Below are positions 4,665-62,675 of a DNA stretch of 64,000 nt, piece after piece. Position numbers and translations under genes: made by a program. Position 1 is the first letter of the stretch. Each line of letters starts with the position of its first letter. Below the pieces are notes generated by a model. The model had not been told where the DNA came from and ran no database searches. It worked only from the letters and a program-made list of their open reading frames with translations. Source of the DNA: Heptranchias perlo (taxonomy: Eukaryota). The stretch lies in NCBI RefSeq assembly GCF_035084215.1, contig NC_090353.1, positions 36,890,001-36,954,000 on the forward strand, written 5' to 3'.

Positions 4665-4774
4665 GCTCGCTGCTTCTGAGAGTGGCGGCGGCGGCGGGTC
4701 CCGGGGGCTGGAGCTCGGCTGTTCCGGGTTCCTGTCGCTGTTATTCCGCTGTCGGTTTGACGAAGGCAGAAACT

Positions 4775-4812
4775 GAGAGGAGGCAAAGGTCGCGGATCAT
4801 TAATATGGAGAG
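4775..4812. promoter_or_regulatory. Putative TM6SF2 proximal promoter elements (HNF4/DR1-like GAGGCAAAGGTCG; HNF1-like half site)
   Basis: Motif resemblance only, ~115-145 nt upstream of the ATG. Confidence 0.3.
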
Positions 4813-4829
4813 AGAGAGAGAGAGAGATA

Positions 4830-10065: not shown

Positions 10066-10195
10066 CAGCGGGTTGGGCCTGAACCTGTAGGCCAGCATCA
10101 TCCGCTTACGGAATGCCTCGTATTCGTCATCGTCCTTATTCAGCTCTGCCGGGCGATCGATACCAAACCCGGCTCCATCCACCGCCGTGGTGCCT
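10066..10195 (-). CDS. SUGP1: SUGP1 exon 13 ([27 protein letters not shown])
   Basis: 130 nt, AG/GT boundaries, frame-continuous. Confidence 0.95.
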
Positions 10196-10904
10196 CTGTG
10201 CAGATAAGAAAAATAAAATACCATCACCAAAAGACTTATATGTATATATAATGCTTTATCATCTTTCCCCCTGGCGAGGGACTTCAGTTATGTGGAGAGA
10301 CTGGAGAAGCTGGGATTGTTCTCCTTAGAGCAGAGAAGGTTAAAGGGAGATTTAATTGAGGTGTTCAAAATCATGTAGGGGTTTTGACAGAGTAAATAAG
10401 GAAAAACTGTTTCCACTGGCAGAACGGTTGGTAACCAGAGGACACTCATTTAAGGTGATTGATCGGGAATGAGCTGCCTGAAAGGGCGGTGGAAGCAGGT
10501 TCAATAATAACTTTCAAAAGGGACTTAGATAAATACTTGAAAAGGAAGAATTTCCAGGGCTATGGGGAAAGAGAAGGGGAGTGGGAGTGGATAGCCGGCA
10601 CAGGCATGATGGGCCGAATGGCCTCCTTCTGTGCTATATGATGAGTCTTTGATTCTCCAAAATGTGACTGTTATGTAGCAAGGACAGCAGCCACTGAATA
10701 CAGCAAGATCCCACAATACCAACAGAATGAACGACCAGTTAAACTGTTTTTGGTGCTGTTGGTTGAGGGAAGAATTTTGACCAGGACTCTGGGAGAACTC
10801 CCTTGCTCTTCTTCAAATGGCGCTGTGGGATCATGAACATCCACCTGGGCCCCTGGAGTAGGCAGACAGGGCCTCGATTTCACGTCTTGTGGAAGACAGC
10901 ATCT

Positions 10905-11135
10905 CTGACAGTGCAGCACTCCCTCAGTACTGACCCTCCGACAGTGCGGCGCTCCCTCCCTCAGTACTGACCCTCCGACAGTGCGGCGCTCCCTCAGTAC
11001 TGACCCTCCGACAGTGCGGCGCTCCCTCAGTACTGACACTCCGACAGTGCGGCGCTCCCTCAGTACTGACACTCCGACAGTGCGGCGCTCCCTCAGTACT
11101 GACACTCCGACAGTGCGGCGCTCCCTCAGTACTGT
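10905..11135 (+). repeat. 33-bp minisatellite (cagtgcggcgctccctcagtactgaccctccga) inside a Deu-SINE copy
   Basis: About 6 units contiguous with SINE sequence at 10660-10905. Confidence 0.85.
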
Positions 11136-11925
11136 CCTTGAGCCTACATGATGTTCTGGAGTAGGGCTTGAGCCTCCTGATGGACTGTAGATTTTGAGCT
11201 TATTGGCTCGGTACTTCACAGTCCCAGTGGAAGAGGTCAGAACTCTTAGGGCCTGGAATAAAACCGAGGCCCAGAGGTATAGCCATTAAGATTCTTGGCC
11301 TGAGGGATGATAATTACTACCACCAGCTACACGACCTGGTGATTGAGCAGCTAACTCCTAATCACTCTTCATTGGCCCCCTGCTGAAAAAGTACCAATAC
11401 GTGGGCATCCTATGGGGGTGGAGGGGGAAGAGGAGAGGGATTGGTGGGGTGGGGGAGGGATGGGAGGGGAAAGGAAGGAGGGGGGGACAGGATTGGGACT
11501 GGCTGTGATGCCCTCCCCACCCCCCCCCCCCTCCCATGTTCAAACTGCCAGTTGACACGTATGTTCAAGTTAGGAAGGAAGAAATGCAGGAACAGGAAAT
11601 GGCTGTTCAGCCGCCCGAGCCTGATCTGTACCTTACCTCCATCTATCCGCACGCAAAGGAATGGCCATTCGGGTGAGATACAGGAGGGGCTGCTGGTACA
11701 AATCCGTGCCTTTGGAGGAGGGTAAAGTGACTACTTGCTTTCCTCCCCTTTAAAAATTATGTCGCGGGGCACTTCCAAAACACGTACAAGGATATGAGGA
11801 CTGCTGTTCGCAGAACAGGTGCACAGGCATCTCATAGCTCAGCCTCGGTCCCCTCCTCAGGACTGGCATTCAAACTCACGTTACCATACAGATTTATTTC
11901 ATAGATCAGAGCCTCGGTTCCGTAC

Positions 11926-12071
11926 CTGGGCACGGGAGCTTTGATGCCTTGTCCCTCAGAGCCTAGTCCATCGCCCTCTTTCCAGCCCATTTTCATCAGC
12001 ATCTGGTAGCCAATGTTCTCCACAGTTATTTTGAAGTCCTTGTAGTCCGAGTAATCGGGCTCTCTGCCTTC
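11926..12071 (-). CDS. SUGP1: SUGP1 exon 12, G-patch ([30 protein letters not shown])
   Basis: 146 nt, canonical G-patch motif, AG/GT boundaries. Confidence 0.95.
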
Positions 12072-12199
12072 CTGTGGGAGACAAACAAGAGAGTGTTGAA
12101 GCAGTTGCGGGGGAGGAGGGCAAGTGAGTGTGTACGCATGTGTGGCCAGTATACTTGTGATCCTTATGGGTGACTGTATACAATCACACACTAGAGGGT

Positions 12200-36819: not shown

Positions 36820-36950
36820 CGGGGTAACCGGGCCCTGTCTGGGGAGACGGTCTGATACCCCACCCCGGGGTAACCGGGCCCTGTCTGGGGAGACGGTCTG
36901 ATACCCCACCCTGGGGTAACCGGGCCCTGTCTGGGGAGACGGTCTGATGC
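36820..36950 (+). repeat. 45-bp tandem repeat x3 (ggggtaaccgggccctgtctggggagacggtctgat..)
   Basis: Direct inspection. Confidence 0.85.
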
Positions 36951-39900
36951 ACATTCTGGGGTAACTCGGGGCAACAAGGCCTTGTTTTTGGGAAAGCTCT
37001 GACACCCCTTCCCCTTCAACCTGGGCAGGGCTGTCAACTCTGGTTGGCTGCCTTCCTGGAGGTTTCATCACATGACCTCTCACCTCTAACAGCCCTGCAT
37101 TGTCAAACAGCCCTTTTCCCCATTTCCAATATTTAATAGAAAGTTACGGCACAGAAGGAGGCCATTTGGCCCATCGTGCCCGTGCCAGCCGAAAAAGAGT
37201 TATCCAGCTTTAATCCCGCTTGGTCCGTAGCCCTGTAGGTTACGGCACTTTAAGTGCACATCCAAGTACTTTTTAAATGAGTTGAGGGTTTCTGCCTCTA
37301 CCACCCTTTCAGGCAGTGAGTTCCAGACCCCCACCACCCTCTGGGTGAAAAAATTTCTCCTCAGCTCCCCTCTAATCCTTCTACCAATTACTTTAAATCT
37401 GTGCCCCCTGGTCACTGATCCCTCTGCTAAGTTTCTATAACTAATAAACAAAAGTGTTCAAAGAATAAGAAAATAAACATTTTTCAAAAATGCCTTTGAT
37501 TTTTCTTCTGGGTGTTGCTTGTAGCAGTGTCCAGGAAATTAATCTACAATTTCTGGAGACTCCAGAACAATCTCGGAGGGTTGGCAACCCTAATCCTGGG
37601 GCAATGGGTCCCTGTAAGGGGAGAGGGGCTGATACCACCACCCTCCCGGTAATCAGGCCTTGTTTTGTGGAAAGGTCTGGCCCTCCATCCTGGGATAACT
37701 GGTGTTATCGGAGAGGGGTCTGATACACTCCCCTCCAGGTTAACTGGGAGTAACCAGGTCCTGTATGGGTTGAGGGTTCAACACCCCTGTCTGCGGTAAC
37801 AAGGGACAACTGGGCCCTGTATGGGGAATGGATAAAGGGCCTGATCCCCCCCCCATCAAAAGATAATCAGAGCAATTGCACCTCCCCATTGGAATGACTA
37901 TAAACACCTCTGGGTTAGGAGTTCCCAGCTCTTAATCAGATTAAGAAAATAACTGCAAATGGTAGAGATCTAAATAAAAGCAGAAAACCCTGGAATCACA
38001 ATAAGACCTTCAGCATCTGACAGCTTAACCTTTCAGCTGAGGCAGAAATTGAGAGTCCTCAACTGTTTTCTCAGATGCAGACAGACCTGCTGTGTATTTG
38101 GAAAATGTTCTGTTGTTATTTCTTGATGAAATTCTTTGTGCACATGTATATGGTGGATGCTGTTTGTTCTCCAAGTCTGAACCTTCCTCTCTGTGGCTCT
38201 GTTCAACAACTGTCTAATTGATGCCATCTTATTGACTTATTTTTGTTAAGGTGTAGGTTTGAGTTATATTAAATGTAGTGAAAATCCTCTATGATCTCTG
38301 CTAAAGGATGTCAATCTGGGTGTTCACTACTGCAATGAAAGTTCCTTATGCTAAAATGATTTCTATCATATTCATATCCTGTACTGTTAACAATACCCAC
38401 TCCTATATATGTTTTTCAAAATGGTAAACCATATTGTCAATAGGTTTACCTCTATTGGAACCATTGTATAGTATATGAAAAAATCCATTTGTCGCTGCAT
38501 TGCTTGTGCTAATCTCATTCAAATTACTCACCACCAGTGACAGTCCTACTTGCACATGCTCTGATGTGCAGAAATGTCCCACGTTTAAATGTACTGTGTG
38601 AATCTTAAGGCTTAATGGAAATGGTAGACGTGGGGTGTTGCCGATGCTGCTGACCTGTTCTTCACCGTGTTATACAGCTCTAAATTGCTTCTCCAGTCAC
38701 AACACAAGTTTGGAAGGACAGAACCTATAACTATACTGCTGAATGATTTTCACAGTTCAAGTGGACACAGCATGAAAATTTCAAACACCTGCCATTATGT
38801 TTTACTGAAATCCTAGTGACAACTGTGTGTCACTAAACAACCATGAGTTACCCGAACAATGATAAAATCTACAGCAGCCTTCAAGGCTATTTGTTTTCAA
38901 AGAGGGCAGCGTGTTCTCTCCCCGGACTGTCCTGCTGGTTTCCCCCGTCTCTGAAACAGGTACATTGACAGCTGATCTCGTTTGTCCCTATGGAACGTGC
39001 TGATCAGTCAGTGAACTCCAACGACCAGCCCAAGTTTGTTCAGCATGTAAATGGCAACTGTAGCGGAGCAGGAGGTGATCTCCCCTGCTTTTAATTAACA
39101 TTGATTAAAAAGTAGGGAAATGTAAATGTATATTTCACATTGGTTGTATTTTAGAAATGGAATCTCTATAATTAGTGCTTTAATTATGGTAAATGAAGCC
39201 CATCTAAGGCCCACAGCTCTTTTCATTGTAGTAGACTTAGTAATATGGGGAAGTCTGGTAGCCATTTTGTGTCAGACTTGTAAGAAGTTCTTTCTGCTGG
39301 TCTGGATTCAGATGAAGTCATCTATCCGAAATCTCAGATTAATGACATTTTTGATACCTGTGCTTCATTTTCAGCTGGGAACTGTACAGTTTTCCTGCTG
39401 CATGACTTTGCACTGTGATTTAGCTGAAAGAAAAAAGAAAGTCTCCATTGCTGATTCCACATTAAAATAGGTTCAGAAAAATTATCTTTTTAAAAAAAAT
39501 ATCGAATCTTCACCTGAACAGACATCTGCCACGTCAGGTTTTCTCCTCGCTGTTAGCTTGCTCTGCTTATTCAATGAGTAAATGCCGTTCCAGGATCAGG
39601 TTGTTCCAGGTCAGCTTTCAAACTAGTCCAGCTTGATCATCCCTCCATTGGTTCCAATGCAACTACACCAGGCACTTTACTGTCGATGACATGAGGGAAT
39701 GGCCTACTAACAAGGAGACTACTAGATCTGGTGGGCTACCTGTCGGCTAGATATTCCATTTTCTTTTTAAAAGCAAGGATAGTTTTTTTGAGAATATATA
39801 TTTTTAATACAAAATACGGGAGTACTTTAAATAGAAAGCACCCCCAAGACTTCCCATCCTCTTTTTATGTAAGGCAAGAAGTGACTGAGGTTTTGGGACC

Positions 39901-42900
39901 AAGCCAGAGAACCATCTATCTGCAGCTCCCAAACACTGAAAGAAGAGATGGACTGAACGATCTTGCAAAAATTCATACTCCATTACTAGGGGAAACCTCT
40001 GCATGGATCTGAAGATTTTTAGTGTTGTGTCTCGAGTACTGTTCTTCCTTTCCCCTCCCATTACTAGTTTAAAAATTAGGGATCCCCAGGATGTTGAACT
40101 ATACCTAAAGTATGATTGATCCTTGCTAAATCTTGAGTAGAAATGTGACAATAGTATTTGTCTTCAAACAGAAATACAAATGCTCGCTGCTGCTTGCATT
40201 TTCTGGTGCATCCTTTTACCACAGAACCTGACTAACTGCTCTTTGACCTTATCATCAGGTGAGTAAATACAAAGGGGTGGGGTCCTCACTGACACTCCAC
40301 TTGGCATCAGGGGGCCAAACCCATTCTTGGACCAACCTGTTCTGATACCCTTAACAAGGTCTTTTGTGCATAGGGATGAAATGGAGCCTGTTCTCAGTGG
40401 ACTGCAGATAACTGAGAGGCTCCCACACCTGATACCTTTTGATATCTTGCATTCTTATTTGCAAGGCATCCTCTTTGCCTTCAGTCCTGATACTGATAAT
40501 CTCCCCTTTCTCTTTAACCCAGAGGGAGTGGTTTTAGCAGGAGCACCCTCCTTTTCTTTGACTCTGGGGAAAGGTGGTTATGTGACAGCCTCATTTTTTA
40601 ATTCCACATGAATTTCCTTGCACTTTCTTATCCTCTTCTACTTTAAGTTCCTTCCATTTCTTATGCTTTTGAGACATCCAGATTGATGCACCAGAGGACA
40701 GTGGTTCATAGTCAGTTATCTCTGCGTAATAATGCACTTTTCTTCGTGCTGTGCAATGACAAAGGGGCCCGACCTCTTCCTGACATGCAATAGTACTGTT
40801 CAGGTTTTGATGAACGCTGTGATCTTAGTAATTCCTAAATATTTTTTTTTCTGTTCTTATTCCAACACACTGCATATAAGAGTTGGACTTAATGTGGGTT
40901 AATCATTCCTCCCTTGTCCTCGAGGGCAGCGATGTTATCAAATGGTCATGACTTGTACTTTTTGGTACCAGGCTTTAATCTATTTGAGTAATCTTTCCTC
41001 TGTATCATTTTGCTACTCCTATCCCATGCATTTTTCTTCAGGCCTCTGGTTTTCTTCCATTGTGAGGCTGAGGTTAGCTGTTTTCTGTTTTGAGTTGCTC
41101 TCTGCTCAAGAGCCTTCATGCTCCTGGTGCATCTAGTTATTCCTAGGAAAGTCACCTGCAGCTATACTAAGAGGATTTCATCCTGGCTGTAGGATCCAAA
41201 TATATTCGCCAGTTATTGGAAGCCTTAATAATTGTATGTTATAACTAAATGTGCACTGCAGTAAATGTTCATAATTACAAAGAATTATAATTACATAGAA
41301 TTTACAACACAGAAACAGGCCATTCGGCCCAACAAGTCTATGCCGGTGTTTATGCTCCACACGAGCCTTCTCCCTTCCTACTTCATCTAACTCTACCAGC
41401 ATATCCTTCTATTCCTTTCTCCCTCATGTGTTTATCTAGAGTTCCCTTAAATGCGAACACACAGTGCAGACCAGGGAATCAAACCTTGGGGCCTCCTGGT
41501 GCAGAGGGCTCTAACAGGATGCGTCTCACACGAGCCAAATGGAGCAAAGCAGATCGGACAGTCAATCAGTGCATTTATTGATATAAGCAAAATCTGTCAA
41601 GAGAGTGCAATGTGTAGCGAGGACAGAAAAATTATTCTGCTGCTTTATCACTTTCAGATTACGAAGTCTAAATAAATTAAATGCATATTAAAAACAATCA
41701 TGAAAATGAAATATTCCAGGCTTGATCTGCTTCAAAGCAAGCCATATGCACAACTCTAACTTTCAAAAGTAATAGTTAAAAACATCTTTATGTACACATA
41801 AGAGTGAGTTTCAGCTCAATGGGCTCGACTTAAAAAAACAATTGCAATCCAAATTTGATCACTATATAAAAAGATTCAACAATGACAGTGCATTTCAATC
41901 CCATATAGCAGCAACCCTCTATACAAGCGTTTCTGTTGTTTTGTAACTGAACCAGTGTGAAACTATTCTACGGCAAGCTGGTTTAATGGTGAAATGGTCT
42001 ATCAGTGGAATGATGCAGGTTCACTTTGTCAATCTGTGATTTCAGCCAAGCAGCCAAGGGACACTAAGTGAATAAGACGTTCTTCTCCATTGGCAGAGAG
42101 AGTAAGCTCTCTCACTCTTGTTAATACTGCACCTGACTAACTCATCTTGTTTGTTCCAAGTTGTATACTCCTTGCAAGCACTAGACATTAATCTATCAAG
42201 GATAGGTCAGCCCTCATTCTTGACCACAAATCCTGGCTTTTGTAATGAACTTATACAATAGGACGTCATTGTGCAGTACTGAGTGTGTGCTGCACAGGCG
42301 AAGGTGCTGTCTTTCGGATGAGACGTTAAACCGAGGCCCTGTCTGACCTTTCTGATGTAAAAGATCCCACAACACTGTTCCGAAGAAGAGCAGAGGAGTT
42401 CTCCCCGGTGTCCTGGCCAATATTTATCCCTCATTATCTGGTCATTATCACATTGCTGTTTGTGGGATCTTGCTGTGCACAAATTGGCTTCCGCGTTTCC
42501 TACATTGCAACACTGACTACACTTCAAAAGTGCTTCATTGGCTGTAAAGCGCTTTCGGACATCCTGAGGTTGTGAAAGGCACTATATAAATGCAAGTCTT
42601 TTTTTTTCATTGTTGCCAGCCCACGTGCAATATGTCCTACTGGAATTTTATGTTTTGAATTAGTCTGGCATAACACAAGTTTTCTTTATAGTTTCATGTC
42701 ACTTTTGAGCGCATATCTGGCTTGCAAGCTCCTTTTCTTGCAGAGTCAGCAGAGAATCCAAGAAGAACTAAGCCATCCTTGGGGAAGACAAATTTTGGTT
42801 TATTTCGCAAGATAATGAACCATTCAGAAACTCTTGTCCTTGGTTTACTTTTAAGGAATGGTTGGGAGGTGGCTCTTTAGTAAGATACACATTCAGCTTT

Positions 42901-43531
42901 TACCCAGAGGCTGAGTTGAGCCACATCAACATGCTGGAGGTGAAGCAATATGAACTTGCTTCTCCACATCTGGACCTACAAAGGAGAGAGTAATTAACTG
43001 TACGGGATCTAGTCTGCTGAATTTTGTTCTAGGAGAATGGATTACAAATGGCTCAGTAAGCTCTAGAATACCTTTATGTAAAGTTGGCTTTCTCCAAGCT
43101 GCTTTCCTCCATTTGAGCAAGTGAGTTCATGCCAGGGTCCTTCACACCTCCATTCACCATACATGAAAACATTCTTGAGCCCAGAGGACAAAGTTGTACT
43201 GCTCTCTTTAGAATGCTCGTTATTTAGTCTCTTGAGGAGGACAACGCATGTCCCTGTTGCTAGGACAAATGATTCCTGTTTTTCTCACTTGTATCTCTTG
43301 GATTATGTCAGATTTCCCAAAAGCATTTTGCATCAGATGCATTTTGTGGTAAAAACCCATGATGTCTTCCTGATCTTAGTGGCGTTATCCGCATGCCCAA
43401 GTGATCTCTAATACATTAGCATTTACATGAAATATAGATTGCAACGTTTTTTTTATAATTGTTTTGATTTTAATAAAAGATAAGCTAAACACTTTTTTTC
43501 TTCCTTTCTTCCCCCCTGTCTTCCATTGAAG

Positions 43532-45493
43532 AAATGCTCAACTATGCACCCAGGCGATATCCCAGGGAATCTTATGAAGAAAATACACAATACGATGATG
43601 TGCCCTATGATGACTATGAATCTCCATCTCACAGGTCGGAGAGATGGAGGAATATGTCCAGTCAGGCAGAAATGCCATCTGAAGATAATAGAAGGTATTA
43701 TGATGATGCTTCCTATTCTACTTCAGGAAGAGAGAATTTCTTGGATCACGATGAGAGAGATGATCACCATTCACAGTATAATGAATTAAGGAACCCCGTT
43801 GAATCCAGTGGGGATCCAGGATTGTTTGGAAGACCAACAAGTTCCAATGACACTGATGCCAGGAGAGGATCTGGGATCTATAGAAGATCAGTGAGTCCTG
43901 CTGAGTCTAGAGATCGACCAGGATTGTACAGAAGACCACCGAGTCCAAATAATTGGCAGTCTCAGAGACCAGTTGATGACTCAAGGGATTACCAATTCTA
44001 TAGGAGATCCCAAAGTCCTGATGGCAGAGATGGTCAAAATTTATACAATAGATCCCAAAACCCTGTTGATAAAACAGGACACTCAGAATCACACAGGCGA
44101 TCCTGGAGCCCTGGTGATGAGACCAGGGATCAGGGATCAAACCCTAGACCCAGGAGTCCTGTTAAGGCACATGATGCAGAGTTATACAAGTTATTAAGTA
44201 ACGTTATTGATAATGCTCGGCGTTTGGCAGCTAGTAAGAATGACCCCTCTCACACATCCTGGAGAGACCAATCCAGGGACTCCTCTCAAATGGATTCCTC
44301 CCTTTACCAGACCGATACACCTACGGATGGGTTCCATGCAGCTGAGGATTATAACCCTCACTTGAACCAGCACAGTTATATTCATCAAAACACAGAAGTT
44401 TCCAGAAGAGGCCATTCCTTTCACGCTCCCCCTAAAAATGCAAGAGGGCCTTTGCTTAAGCGTCCAAAGGTTCCAGGCCGACGTGGCCTTCTAGGGCGAG
44501 CTCCTGGCCTTTTGGGGAGAGCGCCTGGTCTTCTGGGGGCAGCTCCTGGTCTTCTGGGGGCAGCCCCTGGTCTTCTGGGGAATGCCCCTGGTCTTCTGGG
44601 GACAGCCCCTGGCCTTCTGGGGACAGCCCCTGGCCTTCTAGGGACAGCTCCTGCTGGTTTAGTGGGGTCTTCTGTTTCCAGCATGGCAATGGCTGCCCAC
44701 AAAAATATTTCCCCAGACTCTCCTGCTCATTTGCAGTCATTGGGGAATATATCTGTTGCTCCAGGTAGTCAAATGGAACTGGGGCAACAAATAATAAAAT
44801 GGGCTGGTTTTCACAGTGTCGCTGCTGACCATTCCATGAAAAACAAGTTTGATCCCAACACAGATACCTGTTCTAAGGTAGCCACTGCCTTCCAGTGCTT
44901 GATGGCAAAGCAGCATCAGGATATCTGTCAGTCGACATCAGTGACACATCCAGGCCTCACGTGCCCTGTGATCGATAACTCTTTTGTGTCTCTGTTAAGA
45001 AGGAAGAATGTCATTACAAGTAGGAAAGAGTTGGATGATATTGTACGTCAAGAAGAACCTCTTTTGCAAGAGATCCAGAGCAAGCTGCTGGATTGTATAG
45101 GCCCAATTCTTGTAGCAAGCAGCACCCATGAGTTGAGCTCCAAGCCGCAAAGTTCACAGACCCCTAACCAACTTGCCAGTATGCTCGAGAGGGTGATCAT
45201 GGCTTGCCGCCAATCAATGGTGCTCATTGGGCAAACCTTTGCTTTTGTCAGCCAAGAAAGAAGGAAAAATCTGTTGCGCAAGACCGGGCTGGTCTCAATG
45301 GCTCCAAAGTATGATTATTTCGTGAATCTGGAAAACAATCAGCTGTTTGGGAACAAATACACAAATGAGCTGAGGAAGAGAGTGGAGAAAGTCTACCTCC
45401 CCCCAGTACATAGCCAGGTTTCTTGTTCCAGTAAGTTCATGATTAAAGAGGAGGAACAATCAAAGAACGACTCAGCAATCAAGTCCTCAACAA
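43532..45493 (+). CDS. SUGP2: SUGP2 giant exon (1962 nt): RS/RD-rich N-terminus, GLLGxAP repeats, helical domain (IIKWAGFH..GQTF..LFG)
   Basis: Long pyrimidine tract plus gaag acceptor; open frame; donor A|gtaagt. The IIKWAGFH..RQS..LIGQTF..LFG region matches my recollection of SUGP2. Confidence 0.85.
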
Positions 45494-46033
45494 GTAAGTG
45501 CTCCAATTAATCTCCTGATAGTTTATACAGATACACAGCTTGAATTTAATTTGTGATTACAATATACTGTAGCTATTATTAAAAGTCTCTTGGTGATATT
45601 TTGAATATGCCATGATCTGACAGTGAGTGGAAGGTGTATATATATATATACTTTTATTAAAACCCCATTGATCAGACAACACAACGAAGCCATGGATATC
45701 AATGAACTGAAGTATCATCCCTTCTCTGCTCAGTTCCTGGCCTGGCTAGTACCTAGTGCCCCCTAGCAGTTGGCTACATGGACGCATTTTCAATGGTCTG
45801 GGAGTGGGCCTAGCACCCGCTGTCTTGGCAGCAGAAGCCCGAATGCCTGAGGAGTGAGGTTGCTGTATCAATTTAGATCCAGTCAGAAAAAGGAAAGCCG
45901 GAACATTTCCCCTCCAAATTCTAGTGTCTTGGTTTTGCTGTTTTGAGATTCTGTTGCAGCCTCCTGTTAGCTCACCTCCTTTGCACAGAGATGGCTTGAA
46001 CTGTTGTCTTTTTTTAAGTTTCCTCTTTGGCAG

Positions 46034-46331
46034 ATGCCAAAGCCGGCAAGCAGACCGAGAGAGGTGCTTCGGCATCAGACAGCAGTGGTAGATGGAAGAC
46101 CGAGAAAGGCTCAGCACCCGCTGTCTGCAGTGGCAAGAGCATGGCAGAGAAAGATGCACCATCACAAGATGGCAAAAAAGGGTTTGGCCCAGCAGTTGGT
46201 GAGAGCATCCGCCCCCCAGAAGACACGCAGGTCAAGACTATTATTGATAAGCTAGCTATGTTTGTAGCAGAGAAGGGTGAGGCAGCAGAGAAAGCGGTCA
46301 TCCAGTACAAGAAAGAAGACTCCAATTATAG
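46034..46331 (+). CDS. SUGP2: SUGP2 exon (SURP N-half TIIDKLAMFVAE..)
   Basis: 298 nt, AG/GT boundaries, frame-continuous. Confidence 0.85.
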
Positions 46332-46920
46332 GTAAGCACAACGACGTAGCATATTGATATCAATACAGATGTGAAAGGAAAACTCACTTATTAAGGGGTC
46401 AGAAAGCCTTGAGTGGGTAGTTTGTCCAAAGCATTGCACCTGTTTTAAAATGAAAAAGTACCTACTGATCAGAATCCTTTTAAAAATTTTAATGTTCTTA
46501 CCTGCCAGTTCAGGTCCCTCTCCCAGTCAGGCCACACTTATGCCACTGAACAGAGATTGCGTATTGAAAACAACAGGGAGCACGATTTGAGACCAGCCTG
46601 AAAGCCCACCTTCATGGTTGAAGAGCCTAATGATATTTACTATCTAGGTCGAGCCCACGAACACTGTAACAGCCACTTGGGCAATGTACTAGAGGCCTGT
46701 GGGTGCCCAGGAGTTGTACCCCAGCAAGAATTAGCAGTGTCAGGAGGGGAGGATTGAGTTAATGATGTCAGCTATGCTGTAAGTAGCAGCTTCTGTACAG
46801 TGTTGGCTGATAGCTGCCTGCCCTCTCAGCTGTAGTTAATGCCTGGCCCAGGGAATAGTGACGAAAATAGGAAGGGGTGTCTTGCCTTCTAACTTTTTTT
46901 TAAAATTGTTCATTTTAAAG

Positions 46921-47165
46921 GTTTTTACTTGATGCAGAAAGCAACGAGTACAAGTATTATAAGCAGAAAGTGGCACAGTTCTATAGAGAGAACAGCTGCC
47001 AGTCAAGCAAACCTGGTCCAGAAAGAGATTCTTCAGGAGCTGCTGAGAACAGACAGTCAGGATACAAAATATCCGTGGAGGATAAGGCTGATACATCAGG
47101 GGGTCTCCAACCAGAGTTCCTGGTGAAAGTTGAGACCTCGACAACTTATCCAACAGCAGAAAAAG
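46921..47165 (+). CDS. SUGP2: SUGP2 exon (SURP C-half FLLDAESNEYKYYKQKV..)
   Basis: 245 nt, AG/GT boundaries, frame-continuous. Confidence 0.85.
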
Positions 47166-47629
47166 GTAGGGATAACATAACTGTTGTAAGGAAAGGGTTA
47201 ATCAGACTGTCCTGGAGTCTGTTAATGTTATACTACTATTGATTTCTCTTTGTATGATAGTAATGTTAGCCTTTAGCCTTTGCCTGTTGAGCAGGGAAGT
47301 TTGTCAATTTAAAGTACCACTGGGCTATTGAGCCAAGGCTAACCCTGCAGCAATGGTCAGTTTAGTCACTGCAGTAAACCTAATTAAAAGACATTGGCAT
47401 ACTGATTCATACATATATTTCATCAGTTGATAACAAGTGCAGGAAAAACAGTTTGTTCTGCAAGGGAGAACATCTGGGTATACATCATCCTTCTTAATTG
47501 GGGTTTCTGTAGAAGCAGGGGATTGACTGGTATGCTTTGGTACAGAATCAAAGACAGACTTATAACTATAGTTTCACTTGGTTGAATAACAATGATATGT
47601 AACAAGAGTGAAACTATCGATAAGATAAT

Positions 47630-48040
47630 AAAGTAGGGGAGTTATACTGTCTACGGAAAAAGAGTTTGTTAAGTAAGGAAAACTAAAGTTATTGATAAGG
47701 GATAAGTCAATTAAATTCTCCTTATATGGAGTTGTATTTTAACAATTATATAATTATGTAATACAGAATTGTGTGGATTGTCACGTAGAAGGAGTGAGAG
47801 AAATGTAAAAATATTTGGCCATTTGTAATGAGTATTTGGATTTGTAAAGGTCTAAGACACTGAGCTCAGAACTGTAACACGTTTTGAGTCTCTCAACTTA
47901 ACCAGCAAGGATCAGTTGCAAGTAGTGTCTTTTAAGTATATGTTTAAGTGCTATTATATGTGCTGTATACTTAATAAATCTGTAATACTTGATATTCAAT
48001 GTTTAAGAATCTTTTTGTTTTGAAGAGTAAATTATAACCC
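47630..48040 (+). mobile_element. Possible degraded LTR preceded by a polypurine tract
   Basis: aaagtaggggga PPT-like run, then gttata...tataac inverted ends and an internal aataaa. Lacks clean TG..CA ends. Confidence 0.3.
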
Positions 48041-49162
48041 TTCCTCTAACACTGTCATGACAAAACTCCAGGCAGTAAGATTATGTTTTCCCAGTTTTCT
48101 TCCCCCCCTCTGGAAGATGCTGACTCATCCAGGGGTACGGTTCCTCGAAAACCAGATCACCTCCGTCACCTCGCCATGCGGCTATTCACACGTGAGCCCA
48201 GACAGTGAAATGCCGGCAAAGTGTTGACTGTATGGAGTTTCACGGCCAAGACTGATCCTCTTTCTGCCCAATGTGCACAATTTCCAGTAAGGGTCACTGG
48301 ATAACGATTAGGAGTGGGAACCCAGGCTTCTGCCTCGCTATTCAGTAACCCCTGCTGGGAAGTGAGTGATTGCTCAGATGGGAAATCCCCCAGCCTATTG
48401 TCAGGTATCCTGCCGACACTCACTGGTTGAGGCTCACATACAAAGAACGCACACCTGGAGGATTGGCTGTCGCCTGTTGGACTGTACCCCAGTGAGAGTC
48501 AGTGCTTTCAGGAGGAAATCATAGATCATGGACTTCACAGCATAGAAGGAGACAATTTGGCCCATAGAAAATTTAATTTTTATGGAGGCAAAGGAACTGC
48601 AATTAGAGGTTACACATCCCCCAAAATATACCCCCAAAAATACCAATAAAATATTTGTACCCTTGATGGTGATTCTCATCTTGTAGGTGCTAAACTAAAT
48701 GATTGTCAATTCATCGATTTGTAATAATTTTCCCTGTTGATGGGGAGTTAACACTGCCTGATAACACCCTACATTCTGTCATGGGGTGCAGCATGATTTG
48801 AAGAGAGTGTTGGAGTATGAATGTGGAGTGTTATAGCATTGATGAGAGGCAGGTTCAGTCTCATTCCCACTCCCTGTGGGCCAGCAGCACTGAAGTACAC
48901 CCTCACAAGAAATGGGGGGAGTAGTCCGAGGGCAGATCCTTCCTGAACCGCTATTGTGTGCCTGCCCGTTTCTGACTCTGGGTTAAAGGCAGCAAAGGCC
49001 CTGGTTGGCCCTCCTTTGTGTGCATGCATGGTGTGAGGAGACTACGGTGATTTGGGTGAGGACTGAGGGCGTGTAGTGAAAATCGGCAGCAGGTCAGTTG
49101 TAGATGCTGCTGTCCATGAGCGATTGGTGTTTTCTGGAGCTTAATAACTTGCTTTCTCACAG

Positions 49163-49286
49163 ATGAATCTCTCAGTGACACCAAGACGAGAACCACTGCA
49201 GAGAAACTGGCCAAGTTTGTGGCTGAATGTGGTCCAGAGCTGGAAGAGATTGCCATTGAAAACAATCGGGACAATCCAACCTTCTG
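49163..49286 (+). CDS. SUGP2: SUGP2 exon (second SURP N-half [31 protein letters not shown])
   Basis: 124 nt, same size and phases as SUGP1 exons 5 and 7. Confidence 0.9.
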
Positions 49287-49959
49287 GTAAGAGTACAGAG
49301 ATTGGCTGCTTCCTGACACGTCAGGGATGTAAGAATGTGGGATAGGATCCATTCCTATCGGTAAGCGGCTCCCATATGCTCTCCAACCCAAGGGTGCGTT
49401 AGGTCAGTTGATCCTGTAAAAAATGAACACCAGTCAGCTCCCCGCTCCCATGGCTCAGTTGAAATATACAACACCTGGTGTGGTAATGACCAAAACAGAC
49501 CAGAAAGGCCCAGGTTCAATATCCCTGTCTCTGCTGGGTTAGCTGATCTTAGCTGGGACGCTACAATTGCCCTCAGTGCCTCAGGCTAAGGAGGGGTAAA
49601 AAAGAAATCAGCCAGCGTTCCCGCCCCTGATTAGCTATCCCTGTTGGAAAGTGCGTGTGTATATGGACATCGTTGAAGAGCCTGCGACTCCCAATGCCTG
49701 AGCTCACACAGGCCATTGGACAAGGTAACTCAGAAAGAGTCACTGCCTTCAGGAGAGGAAATGTTTTGGAGGGGGGGGGTGGCGGGAGGGGCGAGGAGAG
49801 GAATTCAGATTCTAGTTCCCTTCCATAAGGCAGGTGGGTATGCTGGCTGCATGGGGTGGGGGGGGGGTTGATCATGGTAGTGCAAAGTAAGCGAACAGTC
49901 TGCTTTTATGGCTCTGTTGCTTTTTTTGTTACATCTTCCTTCTACTTGTTTTCTTGCAG

Positions 49960-49965
49960 ATATTG
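49960..49965 (+). other. Candidate 6-nt microexon (ATATTG) creating TGA on inclusion
   Basis: ~55-nt pyrimidine-rich tract + ttgcag | ATATTG | gtgagt. Confidence 0.5.
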
Positions 49966-50884
49966 GTGAGTCTATCCCAAATCACCAGCTTGTCTGTCTG
50001 GGCACCTGTACCACTTCTTGTATCCACTTGTTAATGTGCCTTGAAATAAACATTGGTCTGCTGATTTCCAATCCATAACAGGAGGGTGATTGGTCCACCG
50101 ACACCCTCACCGATCTGTAACTTTGAGAGCGTGACTGTGACATTAGATCCTGATCCATAAAGTTGCAGCTGGTGAACGTGGCACTGGACCGCTGGCTCAG
50201 GTTCAGTGTTTTGCCAGCACGGGTAGATATCCTCCAGCTATGCACAGGGGAGCCAGTGCATTTTGTGTGCTGTTGCCATCCAGCAGTTGGAACTATGGAC
50301 CAGTTTACTCCTCACAATTGGCTGGTTCTCTGTTTTCATCTGGAATTCCTTGAAGGGCTTTGGGACATCCCAAGGCTGTGAAAGACGCTCTGTCAATGCA
50401 AGATTTTTTTTTCGTTTGGATTTGGGTTAGTGTGAGCGGTTATAATGTAAATCCAACCAAGTATTCCTGAATTGTAGTCACTGTTGTAATGTAGGATACA
50501 CGGCAGCCAATTTGCACACAGCAAGATCCCACAAACAGCAATGTGATAATGTCCAGATCATCTGTTTTAGTGATGTTGGCCCGAGGACACTGCGGAGAAC
50601 TCCCCTGCTCTTCCAGTAGTGGCCATGGAATCTTTTACATCCACCTGAGAGGGCAGACGGGGCCTCGGTGTAATGAGTCATACGAAAAACGGCACCTCCG
50701 ATAGTTCAGTACTGCACTGAAGTGTTAGTCTGGATTATGTGCTCAAGTCTCTGGAGTAGAACTTGAACCCACGATCTTTCCTGTTGCCGTCCTCCTTTAA
50801 TGGACATGCAGCTTTTCGCCACCCTGCTGCCCAGAAACAGGAAAGAGGTGATCACAGGGGTTCCCTTTTTTTGCCTCCCTGCAG

Positions 50885-51105
50885 GTTTCTCTACGACGAG
50901 AACAGTTCCTACTACAAATACTACAAGGAGAAGGTGAGGGAGTACAGTGGCGTGCCGGAGAAATCCGACCCTTCGGCCGATCCTGCACCGGAGGCGGCAT
51001 CCTCGGGCCGTTCCGTTCTGCTGCCCAAAAAGCGGAAGGGGCTGACGTTGAAAGTGGGCATGCTGCCACCCAAGAAAATCCGCCCAAAGGCAACGCCATC
51101 ACCGG
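50885..51105 (+). CDS. SUGP2: SUGP2 exon (FLYDENSSYYKYYKEKV..LKVGMLPPKK)
   Basis: 221 nt; LKVGM motif as recalled for SUGP2. Confidence 0.9.
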
Positions 51106-52574
51106 GTAAGCGGGAACAAGCTGTTTACATTTCACTGGAGATGTGTGGATCAAGCCGTGTTGCTCAATGCAGTGGTGACCCCGCCCCCCCACTACCTGAC
51201 CTAATAGAGGGACCCCGTCCAGCCCAGGGGCATTTTAGAAAAATGACGGAAATTAAGACTTAGAGTGACACACTTTTAAAATTTCTGAAAGGTCCATTTA
51301 AATTTATCATCAAGTTGTCAGCTATGACCCACCGCTTTTCATTTTAAAAATGAAATATCCTGGGAAAATTACTGGCACAATGTCCCCTGCTGGTCTCCCG
51401 GGCTCTCAAGTCTTCAGTTCTACATTGAAGTGTCAGCCTAGGTTATGTGCTCAAGTCCTGGAGTGGAGCTTCTGGCCCAGAGGCAATCAATAATGCTACC
51501 CGAGCCAAGCTTGACACACCTAAAGTTAATCCAAATGTGGCCAGGGTTTGACTGGAGGCACTTCACACACTTATTCACCAAGTAAAGGTGGCAGTTCAGT
51601 GTGGTTGTTACCAATTCGAGTCTGTCATAGATACCTTCACAAGTTCAGCGGTATTAGTCGTTCCTGTAAGCTCCTGTAGTCTGAGCATCTTACTTTTATG
51701 GGAGTTGACTCACGCTGCCCTGTATCTCCTTGTACAATAGCAGGACCCAGAGGTGTAACAACGAAACCTCCGTATGATCCGGACATGATCTCGTGTCTTT
51801 CACACATCTGTTTCTTAAATCTCTTGAAAGACTACCAAGTTCACACTAGATGAGACAAGGCTTGGTTTGAATCATTAAGCGGCTTCATTACACAGTTTGG
51901 TGAACATACAGAGCAACAGATAGAATCAGGTTCACTAAGTTCAATTAGTAAAGCCTATTTCCACAGAATGGTGTAAAAGTAATGAACACGTGACGCTACC
52001 CCACTTCAGTGGGTTGTATTACTTAAACAGAATAACCGCTCCGCATTCTGTCCTACATTCAAGGGCAGAACCTGTTCTCTCTGCAGTCTCCTGTCTTTTG
52101 CAGCCTTTTGCTGCCTCGCTCCCTGTGCAGCATCCTGTTTCGAAAGTCTCTCCCTGCGCCCCAAAAGCCTGTCCCTCTTCTATTCTCCATCTCATAGACA
52201 GACAGAGATTAAAGGGTTTTCCAGCACACGGGTGAGAGATGTTTTCTGACAACCCAGATTAGCTTAGAAATTGTTATTGTGGAATGTGTAGGAAAAGCAA
52301 CTTCTGATTAGCATATTGACCGCTTTTTGTCTGTCGTCTGATCTGCGTCCCCTTCATTGAAGCTGTCCCCAGAAAATAATCCCTTTAAAGCGAGATTTAA
52401 CTTAAAAACACGTTGTAAAATAACTAATCTACATCCTTTCAGTGGAAAAATGACCCACAAAAGAATCCAGAAATATGATCTGTCATTCATGTGTCAGTGT
52501 TGTTGAAGCTGTCCTTTTGGTTGTTGCTAAAATCACAGGCGTAAATCACTAATAACTCTCTGTTGTCATTTCAG

Positions 52575-52633
52575 TCCGAGAGCTGAAGAGAATCGGCTAT
52601 GACAAGCCAACGTACAAACAGAAGAAAAAAACA
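52575..52633 (+). CDS. SUGP2: SUGP2 exon (VRELKRIGYDKPTYKQKKKT)
   Basis: 59 nt, tttcag/gtaagt, frame-continuous. Confidence 0.85.
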
Positions 52634-52977
52634 GTAAGTTTAGGAGCATCGTGCACTCGGCCGTTTCTACTGGTACTTATCCTTCTAATCCTCAGTCCTG
52701 TTCCTAATCTGATATTTTTTTTAATATTCAATTGATATATAAATAATTGCTTTAGCTGGGAGCCTATTCCATGCATCCACTACTCCATGCTGGAGCGGAT
52801 ATTTAAATGCTGGCTTGTTGAGTGCAGTCAAACAGTTTAAGAATGTTTTCACATTTTCTCCCGTCCTCTCCCACAGTCCCAAACTCCCAAAGATGTTAGC
52901 CGCGGCTCAGTGGGCAGCACTCTCGCCGCCGAGTCAGAAGGTCATGGGTTCAAGTCCCACTCGAGAGACTTACCCAC

Positions 52978-53011
<34 letters not shown>

Positions 53012-53773
53012 AGAGTACTGAAGGAGCGCTGTGCTGTCTTTCGGATGAGACTTTAAACTGAGGCCCTGTCTACCTTCTCAGGCGGACATAAAATATCCTA
53101 TGGCACTATTTTGAGGAAGACCAGGGGAGTTCTCCTGGTGTCCTGGTCAATATTTATCTCTCAACCAACATCACTTAAAAAAAACAGATTATCTGGTCAT
53201 TATCAAATTGTTGTTTGTGGGATCTTGCTGTGCGCAAATTGGCTGCCACATTTCCTACGTTACAACAGTGACTACACTTCAAAAGTACTTCATTGGCTGT
53301 AAAGCGCTTTGGGATGACCTGAGGTGTTGAAAGGCACTGTGTAAATGCAAGTCTTTCTTTCAAAGGTACTGGTTGTTGTGGGTTCAGACACTCGCTCCAG
53401 TAGCTCCCTCAAGTGACCATTCTTCATACTTGAGCCTTGTCGGCAGCACATTGGACTCCGGAGGGGAGGGCACCCCCGCCGAGCCTGATCCTGTCCTCGC
53501 TGTGAACTCTCCATCAGGGGAGCCCGGGCCGTTTGATCCTCCCTAGGCAAGGGACGCTGAGACAACTTATACCAGTCTACTGTCACCTTGGCAGAAATGA
53601 GCTAACTAAGCACAGACCAGAGACCGAGCCGGGAACCTACTAGTCTGTAAGGCTCAGTTCCACATTGGATGGTGCCTTTAGCCACTGCACCAGTAAGGGA
53701 CCCTGACACCGGTTAAATTGATTCGCCGTTGGGGATGTAAAAGGTTTTTTCTGACCAAATGCTTCTCTTTCAG

Positions 53774-53910
53774 AAAAATGAGGATATAAATTACACTAAA
53801 AACAGGCTGGCAGTGGACAACCTTGGGTACCAGATGCTGCAGAAGATGGGCTGGAAGGATGGAGAGGGGCTGGGCTCAGGAAAACAGGGCATCAGAGACC
53901 CCATCAACAG
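53774..53910 (+). CDS. SUGP2: SUGP2 G-patch exon ([30 protein letters not shown])
   Basis: 137 nt, G-patch motif. Confidence 0.92.
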
Positions 53911-54127
53911 GTATGAAACAGGACAGACAGGGCTGGCTAGACACTGCCCTTTCACGTTTGGGTACTGGTTTCACACCCAGCCTAAACTCCGGCAATGAAT
54001 CTTTGTGTCTCTGCGGGCCGTAAGGGTCCCAGCTTGAACATCACGCCCATTAATGAGATCAAAAGTGTTTGTTGTTATTCAGTTGCCTGCACTCACATTC
54101 CTCACTGTATGAATTGGAAACTAGTAC

Positions 54128-54470
54128 CTTCCACTTCAGTGGGATTTATCAACGATAGGCATAGTACATCCACTGGAGCTGTGAACTCATCCAGTAGTTT
54201 GAATTGTATGACACTGGGGGACAGTACTGGTGTGTACAGGTCTGTCACTGTATAGCACTGGGGGACAGTACTGGTGTGTACAGGCCTGTCACTGTATAAC
54301 ATTGGGGGACAGTACTGGTGTGTACAGGTCTGTCACTGTATAACACTGGGGTACAGTACTGTACACACCAGTACTGTCCCCCAGTGTTATACAATTCAAG
54401 CAGCTGGATGAGTTCACAGCTCCAGTGGATGTACTATGTCTGTCGTTATGAAATCCCACTGAAGTGGAAG
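54128..54470. repeat. Inverted repeat with ~112-nt arms (54128-54239 and 54359-54470)
   Basis: Arms are reverse complements with ~9 differences; the loop consists of 46-bp satellite units. Confidence 0.9.
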
Positions 54471-54656
54471 ATACAGGTCTGTCACAGGAGGTGGTAGAGA
54501 TGGAACAACTTGAAGGAATAAATTCAGTATCTCATGACCTTAATCTGTCTTGGCTCCAGTGGTTTTTTTTTCTCAATACTGCTTTGGTACCAATATACTA
54601 AATAAGCCTTCTAACAGCACTGTAAATCTTACAGAGGAACCCTTTCTCCTCCTTAG

Positions 54657-54792
54657 GGGTGTGACGTCGTCAGACAGGTCTGGGCTAGGAGTCGGCAGTG
54701 CTGTGGAGACGGATGAAGGGGATAATGAGTTTGCCTCTTTCCGTAAACGGATGATGGTGGCATTCAGAAGCAAGCTGCTTTCTAAATCCTAG
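54657..54792 (+). CDS. SUGP2: SUGP2 last coding exon (..EFASFRKRMMVAFRSKLLSKS*)
   Basis: 136 nt; the stop TAG is the final codon, directly followed by donor gtacgt. Confidence 0.88.
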
Positions 54793-59493: not shown

Positions 59494-59829
59494 GTGAGTG
59501 ACTGACTGCAATCCCCAGGGAAATGCAGGAAGGAGGAGCTTGCATTTATATAGCACCTTTCACATCCTCAGGACGTCCCAGAGCGCTTCACAGCCAATCC
59601 TGTTAAAGTGCAGTCAGAGCTGTGGGGAAACAAAGCAAGATCCCACAAACAGCAATCAGATAGGCGACCAGTTAGTCTGTTTTATTAACGATGTTGGTCG
59701 AGGGATAACTATTGGGGGGGGGGCGGGGGAACTCCCCTGCTCTTCCAATAGTGCAGTGGGATCTTTTACATCCACCTGAGAGGAGCAGACGGGGCCTCGG
59801 TTTAACATCTCATCTGAAAGACGGCACCT

Positions 59830-62675
59830 CCGACAGTGCGGCTCTCCCTCAGTACTGACCCTCCGACAGTGCGGCGCTCCCTCAGTACTGACCCTCCGAC
59901 AGTGCGGCTCTCCCTCAGTACTGACCCTCCGACAGTGCGGCTCTCCCTCAGTACTGACCCTCCGACAGTGCGGCTCTCCCTCAGTACTGACCCTCCGACA
60001 GTGCGGCTCTCCCTCAGTACTGACCCTCCGACAGTGCGGCTCTCCCTCAGTACTGACCCTCCGACAGTGCAGCACTCCCTCAGTACTGACCCTCCGACAG
60101 TGCAGCACTCCCTCAGTACTGACCCTCCGACAGTGCGGCTCTCCCTCAGTACTGACCCTCCGACAGTGCAGCGCTCCCTCAGTACTGACCCTCCGACAGT
60201 GCGGCTCTCCCTCAGTACTGACCCTCCGACAGTGCGGCGCTCCCTCAGTACTGACCCTCCGACAGTGCGGCTCTCCCTCAGTACTGACCCTCCGACAGTG
60301 CGGCGCTCCCTCAGTACTGACCCTCCGACAGTGCGGCACTCCCTCAGTACTGACCCTCCGACAGTGCGGCGCTCCCTCAGTACTGACCCTCCGACAGTGC
60401 GGCTCTCCCTCAGTACTGACCCTCCGACAGTGCGGCTCTCCCTCAGTACTGACCCTCCGACAGTGCGGCTCTCCCTCAGTACTGACCCTCCGACAGTGCG
60501 GCTCTCCCTCAGTACTGACCCTCCGACAGTGCAGCACTCCCTCAGTACTGACCCTCCGACAGTGCAGCACTCCCTCAGTACTGACCCTCCGACAGTGCGG
60601 CTCTCCCTCAGTACTGACCCTCCGACAGTGCAGCGCTCCCTCAGTACTGACCCTCCGACAGTGCGGCTCTCCCTCAGTACTGACCCTCCGACAGTGCGGC
60701 GCTCCCTCAGTACTGACCCTCCGACAGTGCGGCTCTCCCTCAGTACTGACCCTCCGACAGTGCGGCGCTCCCTCAGTACTGACCCTCCGACAGTGCGGCA
60801 CTCCCTCAGTACTGACCCTCCGACAGTGCGGCGCTCCCTCAGTACTGACCCTCCGACAGTGCGGCTCTCCCTCAGTACTGACCCTCCGACAGTGCGGCTC
60901 TCCCTCAGTACTGACCCTCCGACAGTGCGGCTCTCCCTCAGTACTGACCCTCCGACAGTGCGGCTCTCCCTCAGTACTGACCCTCCGACAGTGCGGCTCT
61001 CCCTCAGTACTGACCCTCCGACAGTGCGGCTCTCCCTCAGTACTGACCCTCCGACAGTGCGGCTCTCCCTCAGTACTGACCCTCCGACAGTGCGGCTCTC
61101 CCTCAGTACTGACCCTCCGACAGTGCAGCACTCCCTCAGTACTGACCCTCCGACAGTGCAGCACTCCCTCAGTACTGACCCTCCGACAGTGCGGCTCTCC
61201 CTCAGTACTGACCCTCCGACAGTGCAGCGCTCCCTCAGTACTGACCCTCCGACAGTGCTGCGCTCCCTCAGTACTGACCGTCCGACAGTGCAGCGCTCCC
61301 TCAGTACTGACCCTCCGACAGTGCGGCACTCCCTCAGTACTGACCCTCCGACAGTGCTGCGCTCCCTCAGTACTGACCCTCCGACAGTGCAGCGCTCCCT
61401 CAGTACTGACCCTCCGACAGTGCGGCGCTCCCTCAGTACTGACCCTCCGACAGTGCGGCGCTCCCTCAGTACTGACCCTCGACAGTGCAGCGCTCCCTCA
61501 GTACTGACCCTCCGACAGTGCGGCGCTCCCTCAGTACTGACCCTCCGACAGTGCGGCGCTCCCTCAGTACTGACCCTCCGACAGTGCGGCGCTCCCTCAG
61601 TACTGACCCTCCGACAGTGCGGCGCTCCCTCAGTACTGACCCTCGACAGTGCAGCGCTCCCTCAGTACTGACCCTCCGACAGTGCGGCGCTCCCTCAGTA
61701 CTGACCCTCCGACAGTGCGGCGCTCCATCATTACTGCCCCTCCGACAGTGCAGCGCTCCCTCAGTACTGACCCTCCGACAGTGCAGCGCTCCCTCAGTAC
61801 TGACCCTCCGACAGTGCAGCGCTCCCTCATTACTGCCCCTCCGACAGTGCAGCGCTCCCTCAGTACTGACCCTCCGACAGTGCAGCGCTCCCTCAGTACT
61901 GACCCTCCGACAGTGCAGCGCTCCCTCATTACTGCCCCTCCGACAGTGCAGCGCTCCCTCATTACTGCCCCTCCGACAGTGCAGCGCTCCCTCAGTACTG
62001 ACCCTCCGACAGTGCAGCGCTCCCTCAGTACTGACCCTCCGACAGTGCAGCGCTCCCTCATTACTGCCCCTCCGACAGTGCAGCGCTCCCTCAGTACTGA
62101 CCCTCCGACAGTGCAGCGCTTCCTCAGTACTGACCCTCCGACAGTGCAGCGCTCCCTCATTACTGCCCCTCCGACAGTGCAGCGCTCCCTCATTACTGCC
62201 TCTCCGACAGTGCAGCACTCCCACAGTACTGACCCTCTGACTGTCTAGAGGACTGGAGTACAAGGGGGCAGAAGTTATGCTGCAGCTATGCAAAACCCTG
62301 GTTAGACCGCAGCTGGAGTACTGTGAGCAGTTCTGGGCACCGCACCTTCGGAAGGACATATTGGCCTTGGAGGGAGTGCAGCGTAGGTTTACTAGAATGA
62401 TACCCGGACTTCAAGGGTTAAATTACGAGGAGAGATTACACAAATTGGGGTTGTATTCTCTGGAGCGCTCCCTCAGTACTGCCCCTCCGACAGTGCAGCG
62501 CTCCCTCAGTACTGCCCCTCCGACAGTGCAGCACTCCCTCAGTACTGCCCCTCCGACAGTGCAGCACTCCCTCAGTACTGCCCCTCCGACAGTGCAGCAC
62601 TCCCTCAGTACTGACCCTCCAACAGTGCAGCACTCCCTCAGTATCGCCCCTCCGACAGCGCAGCGCTCCCTCATT
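59830..62675 (+). repeat. 33-bp SINE-derived satellite array (~2.6 kb) interrupted by a CR1 fragment at ~62243-62463
   Basis: Unit ccgacagtgcggc(t/g)ctccctcagtactgaccct. The array lies between a Deu-SINE body (59535-59830) and the SINE head (~62680-62790). Confidence 0.92.

Follow-up and report, generated by a model that had tools for sequence, protein, structure and literature searches.

The window analysed here, a stretch of 64,000 nucleotides from the shark Heptranchias perlo (GCF_035084215.1, contig NC_090353.1, positions 36,890,001 to 36,954,000 of the forward strand; all coordinates below are those of the window), contains the gene SUGP2 and raises the question of where the giant exon of this gene came from and what the domain encoded within it does. 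The LAP2alpha domain (PF11560, structure 2V0X) of TMPO, in its LAP2alpha isoform, and of ZNF451 originated from the ORF1 of DIRS retrotransposons (Abascal et al. 2015, PMC4495291), a paper whose accessible text describes these two genes alone, and the accessible sections of a 2018 Repbase review list the same two, both mammal-specific, as the only human genes with DIRS-derived domains (PMC5753468). SUGP2 appears once among genes with HMM-predicted retroviral-like ORFs, with no domain or DIRS link stated in the accessible part of that source (PMC7499964). The original prediction held that SUGP2 was possibly an unrecognised domestication and this agrees with the literature searched, from which subscription papers were mostly absent and in which no paper was found to link SUGP2 with DIRS or to list it beside LAP2alpha.

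The H. perlo protein named SUGP2-like (P0003, 1072 aa) shows 100% identity across the domain, identifying the gene as shark SUGP2, and maps onto nine coding exons from 36563 to 54789. The giant exon has AG/GT borders, an open frame and a phase-1 intron on either side, and is enclosed in an open reading frame at 43489-45510. The features of the gene are as follows.

36563..36584, + strand: first coding exon of SUGP2, 22 nt, with a phase-1 donor.
43532..45493, + strand: giant exon 2 of SUGP2, internal, coding and skippable in frame, 1962 nt, with phase 1 at either end; spanned as a whole by one contig of run X5.
43534..44769, + strand: N-terminal arm of the giant exon, of low complexity, with many Ser, Arg, Asp and Pro residues and a 21-nt tandem repeat at its end.
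44770..45390, + strand: all-helical domain of SUGP2, ~207 aa, very probably derived from a DIRS ORF1, with a predicted dimer core made up of a pair of long helices (residues 96-122 and 132-172 of the domain).
44851..45390, + strand: model residues 28-207, compared with LAP2alpha residues 492-689 (2V0X chain B; Z 8.3, 164 residues, rmsd 5.5, 10% identity; non-significant).
44956..45387, + strand: core of the domain, aligned directly to a frog DIRS-type ORF1 (31% identity to P0062 over 144 columns).
44965-44985, + strand: motif PVIDNSF, inside the domain.
45064-45105, + strand: motif LQEIQSKLLDCIGP, inside the domain.
45223-45276, + strand: motif LIGQTFAFVSQERRKNLL, inside the domain.
45343-45372, + strand: motif LFGNKYTNEL, inside the domain.
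46019..54789, + strand: seven SUGP2 exons downstream of the giant exon, with two SURP modules and a G-patch.

The single intronless exon of 1962 nt and its four motifs, all described in the original prediction, were found where it had placed them, and the compact helical domain that it had recognised in the C-terminal third of the exon is borne out by an all-helical model (pLDDT 82, pTM 0.73). The N-terminal 412 aa of the exon matched only chimaera SUGP2 among the 15 proteins tried and no element protein; an element origin is demonstrated only for the domain of ~145-200 aa, not for the whole exon. The 21-nt coding tandem repeat in this arm (44484-44653) consists of eight copies with APGLLG-type units; its copy number varies across sharks and rays, and the chimaera protein P0015 is without it.

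A contig from another shark species (run X13, record 12; 2321 nt; a run presumed to be RNA) joins 44484-45481, 46127-46329 and 50884-51104, such that the domain exon is spliced across introns to the SURP exons. Contigs from all four runs examined, representing four organisms, cover intron 2 (45494-46018), where read-through would run into a stop (45508-45510) and two ATTAAA motifs (45578 and 45656), and it is possible that a short form of SUGP2 terminates after the domain in this manner. Upstream, contigs from three runs extend out of the giant exon into the preceding intron at 42534-43531, within which two shark gene models (P0008 and P0011) begin; this segment is possibly a second start or a retained intron. 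Elsewhere in the window there are LINE-like reverse-transcriptase fragments at 18529-20415, 31286-31813 and 62241-62699, and long minisatellite arrays at 4439-6720 and 59656-62410, which produce spurious long ORFs.

The paralog of SUGP2 occupies the opposite strand of the same window.

10078..36219, - strand: SUGP1 paralog, head-to-head with SUGP2, recognised by tblastn homology.

Its name and its start at this locus are our tentative assignment, made from homology and characteristic motifs. The likely SUGP1 start codon at 36219 (-) is 344 nt from the SUGP2 start at 36563 (+), and both first coding exons are 22 nt long, in phase 1, with GCAG as the final four bases before the donor. A head-to-head pair with equal first exons fits an inverted duplication and a common promoter; the human SUGP1 and SUGP2 are presumably not adjacent. 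By tblastn, only the SURP, G-patch and last exons of the two genes match, and the matches are interrupted at identical places within SURP and G-patch. Open segments of SUGP1 without a match in SUGP2 include 33396-33121, 32367-32233, 16944-16711 and 13655-13482, which argues that the giant exon replaced the N-terminal exons of SUGP1 rather than being a simple addition. The original description of SUGP2 as, in the main, SUGP1 with one further exon is thereby corrected: the large exon is real but substitutes for N-terminal SUGP1 exons that SUGP2 lacks. An HMM of the domain found one copy in the 64-kb window and none in any of the frames of SUGP1. SUGP1 shares with SUGP2 the two SURP modules, the G-patch, the last-exon sequence and the 22-nt phase-1 first exon; it shows no trace of the domain and has several exons of its own. 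Its SURP exons (28709-28947 and 23604-23842, - strand) have 87% DNA identity to each other over 239 nt, which suggests a recent exon duplication or conversion.

A phmmer search of the domain against 1.84 billion representative proteins returned 55 matches, of which 41 were SUGP2-type, seven were RRM-fused proteins of sharks and rays or a coelacanth protein, six were frog element-type and one was spurious (P0067, a Kelch protein with E 1.2e-5 over domain residues 5-47, discarded). The SUGP2-type matches comprise two cartilaginous and 39 bony representatives, with a SURP or G-patch match in 32 of the 39. Among the 17 bony representatives examined, 16 had a named member, belonging to coelacanth, lungfish, caecilians, salamanders, frogs, gecko, bird and pangolin; none of these 16 was a ray-finned fish, in which SUGP2 or its domain has possibly been lost or has strongly diverged. 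A word-indexed search returned none among 61 candidates of near length and, at longer lengths, only 13 SUGP2 proteins of cartilaginous fishes. In salamanders (P0023, P0027 and P0032 in Ambystoma; P0042 and P0058 in Lissotriton) and caecilians (P0019 and P0031 in Rhinatrema), the domain-bearing SUGP2-like genes appear to have expanded in number and to evolve fast, and several of them are without a G-patch match.

The domain of ~200 aa has been retained from chimaera to pangolin, where it is present in all ten full-length isoforms. Between the shark and four bony vertebrates its identity (33-40%) is above that of the N-terminal arm (7-16%) and the linker (10-17%) and approaches that of SURP2 and the G-patch (40-57%). 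A branch with 100/98 support separates all 42 SUGP2 domains from the other rows of a 53-row tree, with the cartilaginous and bony rows each clustering, a topology that fits a single capture before the split of these lineages; the tree is unrooted, carries long-branch warnings and excludes the spurious match as well as five partial rows and seven close shark rows. The domain exon is orthologous, open and conserved across distant species, as is typical of a domesticated transposon exon. No reverse transcriptase or recombinase remnant was found in the 64-kb window, in contrast to the elements, which also have a methyltransferase that lacks a remnant here; a weak match at 63085-62852 (E 0.003) was set down to low complexity and not to an element remnant.

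The frog proteins among the phmmer matches (E 4e-10 for the best, to 1e-4) tie the domain to a transposon. The best of them, P0062, is named a tyrosine recombinase and has 31% identity over 144 columns. A profile search with 13 rows, for which the best 8000 candidates from the 1.84 billion proteins were scored, found 21 proteins (best E 1e-15), 16 of which are Pelobates gene models distributed over six contigs that differ in length, a multi-copy pattern; the family occurs in Pelobates, Dendropsophus and Xenopus. An HMM built from 52 rows of SUGP2 only picked up 15 of the 20 element proteins from frogs at E < 1e-4 (best, 72 bits), with a best score of 6.1 bits among 1938 reversed or shuffled controls, and each of the five proteins that it missed covers the domain partially. 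The reverse HMM, from six element rows that had themselves come from a search with the shark query, gave 63 bits for the shark domain, 38 for that of pangolin and 25 for that of gecko (E 0.66). The SUGP2 and element rows have 24 conserved columns in common, including Pro, Gly, Asn and Gln. In addition to the motifs and the ~31% identity over the core that it shares with the frog ORF1, SUGP2 differs in having ~10 additional residues ahead of the first long helix. The outcome that the original prediction had named as contrary to it, matches to SUGP2 orthologs only, was not what was found, as frog element ORF1 proteins match significantly.

Element functions follow the domain in several of the 20 frog models, which are the evidence for the element in the form of gene models and not of an intact element observed as DNA. 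Reverse transcriptase follows in P0127 (RVT_1, E 5e-21; LKDAF to YLDD 64 codons apart), and a recombinase follows in P0062 and P0123, both named tyrosine recombinase by NCBI, with PF00589 at E 0.003-0.004, under the curated cut-off, and the HSIR motif as in LgDIRS1. P0131 has a methyltransferase motif after the domain, AFPP with PVW 27 codons later, assigned by motif alone, as the frog element proteins have no methyltransferase Pfam match. In the supplementary table of PMC3266345, which covers 28 DIRS1-like elements, AFPP and PVW are mostly 78-81 nt apart, and the motifs and spacings of the frog models agree with this table. As Ngaro elements have no methyltransferase domain (accessible text of PMC3266345 and PMC9210276), the motif in the relatives identifies them as DIRS1- or PAT-like and rules out membership in Ngaro. 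DIRS1-like and PAT-like elements are themselves told apart by their termini, which are either inverted repeats combined with an internal complementary region or split direct repeats. The predicted resemblance to "DIRS/Ngaro" ORF1 consequently stands for DIRS, through the frog ORF1 homology, and falls for Ngaro. Likewise, the label of transposon "Gag" is apt for a protein in the ORF1 position but is a positional name only, as a clear homology between retroviral Gag and the ORF1 of DIRS is lacking (PMC4495291, accessible text). No capsid (CA) fold of retroviral or Ty3 Gag was among the structural matches listed. A metagenome scan with P0127 gave 110 pattern matches and zero relatives.

A link to LAP2alpha through Pfam, one of the checks proposed at the outset, failed. 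The domain has two weak, unrelated Pfam matches only, and the search for PF11560 came back empty for the domain and all 13 aligned members at E up to 10, as well as for 19 relatives at E up to 5. The accessible text of PMC9210276 reports a LAP2alpha domain in all Xenopus DIRS-like families, and the present frog family, without a PF11560 match, would therefore form a separate ORF1 subgroup. By sequence, the PDB gave a best E of 0.069 with the single sequence and zero matches with the profile, and a viral structure library gave no match at E up to 0.001. A fold predicted from 13 close rows (pLDDT 44) was not used; the model rests on a 49-row alignment (pLDDT 82, pTM 0.73) and has a long hairpin of residues 96-122 and 132-172.

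In all three fold comparisons with the PDB 2V0X ranked first, with significance in none, so that the second proposed check, against the LAP2alpha dimer structure, gave a first rank with a non-significant score. Foldseek against 350,542 PDB chains placed it at ranks 1 and 2 (E 0.63 and 0.91, non-significant; probability 0.66, as against 0.18 at rank 3; TM 0.39-0.44), and VIA-align against 48,161 chains placed it first (Z 8.3, 164 residues, rmsd 5.5, 10% identity, non-significant). It is the only VIA match among those listed with more than 107 aligned residues; most of the others align 60-80 hairpin residues, and unrelated hairpins come within 1 of Z 8.3. The weight of the match accordingly derives from its rank, its coverage and the independent ORF1 link and not from its score. 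In an atlas, feature neighbours at 0.89 have PF11560 in 21-25% of their members, which is a lead only, and one structure row of the atlas names PF30815 (TM 0.42). The domain is most plausibly a distant sister of LAP2alpha that lies outside PF11560.

When two copies of the domain were modelled together, the dimer score was 0.82 (best of three controls, 0.00), with contact agreement between runs of at least 89% and pLDDT of at least 79. On eukaryotic proteins the mark used for this score is reached by 17 of 29 solved homodimers and none of 30 single chains, and by just one of seven homodimers without an older solved relative, a rate that means the score here may reflect memory of 2V0X. The best predicted contacts, between residues 153-164 of one copy and 99-109 of the other, include Q103, which is invariant, and three other residues conserved in SUGP2 and element rows, G154, F157 and R164, and the contacts between the long helices are modelled as antiparallel. 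Based on these models, the domain is probably an antiparallel helical homodimer like the C-terminal domain of LAP2alpha.

Dimerisation is likely to be the main role of the domain, as far as the models indicate. It would double the disordered arms, SURP and G-patch modules of SUGP2, and a bivalent protein on nascent RNA could gain the avidity to coat long introns on chromatin, with the coated introns subject to splicing repression largely without DHX15. Such a scheme is in keeping with the accessible text of a study of human SUGP2 (bioRxiv 10.64898/2026.06.30.735655), in which the protein is mostly chromatin-bound, binds LINE sequence as well as long and deep introns, acts as a splicing repressor largely independent of DHX15, unlike other G-patch proteins, and co-purifies with 12 hnRNP proteins; in the accessible main text no word beginning with dimer, transpos- or LAP2 was found. 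According to the accessible part of PMC11417337, efficient chromatin association of LAP2alpha needs dimerisation through its C-terminal domain.

An ORF1-derived domain might instead bind RNA, hnRNP proteins or lamins, or package element RNA as an ORF1 does. The deep-intron and LINE binding and the 12 hnRNP partners of human SUGP2 (bioRxiv 10.64898/2026.06.30.735655) would suit such a role, as would the binding of A-type lamins in vitro by the LAP2alpha C terminus (PMC11417337, accessible part), and it is compatible with dimerisation; it is nonetheless rather unlikely as the explanation, since the most conserved residues lie in the predicted dimer interface and, of the structural matches listed that span the domain, none is an RNA-binding fold.

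The origin of the domain of SUGP2 from a DIRS-type ORF1 is very probable, and the account that best combines the evidence (probability of roughly 0.8) is that SUGP2 is a duplicate of SUGP1 in which a DIRS1/PAT-type ORF1 was captured as an internal exon before the split of cartilaginous and bony vertebrates and now serves as a dimerisation module. SUGP1 would have been duplicated to give SUGP2, the ORF1 would have been taken in once, in the ancestor of jawed vertebrates, and the enzymes of the element would have been lost. The core of the original prediction, a SUGP1 duplicate that captured a transposon ORF1, is in this form supported by the frog ORF1 homology, by conservation and by the splicing to the SURP exons.

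Transfer in the other direction, with SUGP2 or a MATR3-type gene as the source of an old host domain that a frog DIRS family acquired, is highly improbable. The element relatives confirmed by alignment are one family in three frog genera, which leaves donor and direction unfixed, the host copies are more widespread, and the tree is unrooted. Against this, the domain is absent from SUGP1, lies within a single large exon and occurs in host genes that are unrelated; the fold of the domain points to LAP2alpha, which is itself of DIRS ORF1 origin (PMC4495291, accessible text); and the frog ORF1 P0063 has language-model look-alikes (0.94-0.95) in arthropod and mollusc clusters, a lead only. That the domain is a vertebrate invention resembling the elements by chance or convergence of helical hairpins, as the lack of a Pfam match, the non-significant fold match and the many chains that match helical hairpins at Z about 7 might allow, is scarcely credible and on sequence grounds close to refuted by phmmer and the SUGP2-only HMM, given that searches of 1.84 billion proteins reached E 4e-10 with the single sequence and 1e-15 with the profile, that the controls stayed at 6 bits and that 24 conserved columns are common to the domain and the elements.

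As a captured ORF1, the SUGP2 domain resembles the LAP2alpha domain of TMPO and ZNF451 in its DIRS origin, its single large exon, its nuclear host gene and, in the model, the same overall helical arrangement, with a homodimer predicted for SUGP2. It differs from them in that its exon is internal, with the downstream domains kept, whereas theirs is an alternative 3' exon; in its range from chimaera to mammals, whereas the exons of TMPO and ZNF451 are mammalian only; and in its lack of a PF11560 match and ~10% identity to 2V0X.

Further copies of the domain, either separate captures or exon copies and known here from gene models alone, are found in RRM genes. The seven RRM-fused or coelacanth matches of the phmmer search have E values from 2e-15 to 5e-11. 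The domain is C-terminal in the ray ZNF638-like proteins P0055 and P0054, one of them named ZNF638-like isoform X9, and in a second, related RRM gene of sharks and rays (P0057, P0059-P0061, P0117 and P0119), and is also present in the coelacanth protein P0056. We take the two shark genes to belong to the MATR3/ZNF638 family, based on the source name and on N-terminal and zinc-finger motifs. In Narcine, the predicted isoform P0092 shares residues 1-954 and is without the domain, which, by analogy, suggests that these genes carry the domain on an alternative last exon in the pattern of TMPO and ZNF451.

A broader and doubtful reading is that DIRS ORF1 is a portable dimer module that has been captured repeatedly, in TMPO and ZNF451 (mammals), in SUGP2 (the ancestor of jawed vertebrates) and in two shark MATR3/ZNF638-type genes; several of these hosts belong to the machinery for silencing that binds introns and LINEs. 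In its boldest form, this reading has the captures begin as defence, in which a host copy that paired with element ORF1, or kept an affinity for element RNA, would have brought splicing repressors to transposon transcripts.

For the family itself, SUGP2 would be the third DIRS-derived case beside TMPO and ZNF451 and far older than either, in a gene that mammals retain (here, pangolin). The unannotated N-terminal half of SUGP2 gains a structure and a role that can be tested, and the gene offers a second handle on the largely unknown role of DIRS ORF1 and hints at other captures that Pfam has missed.
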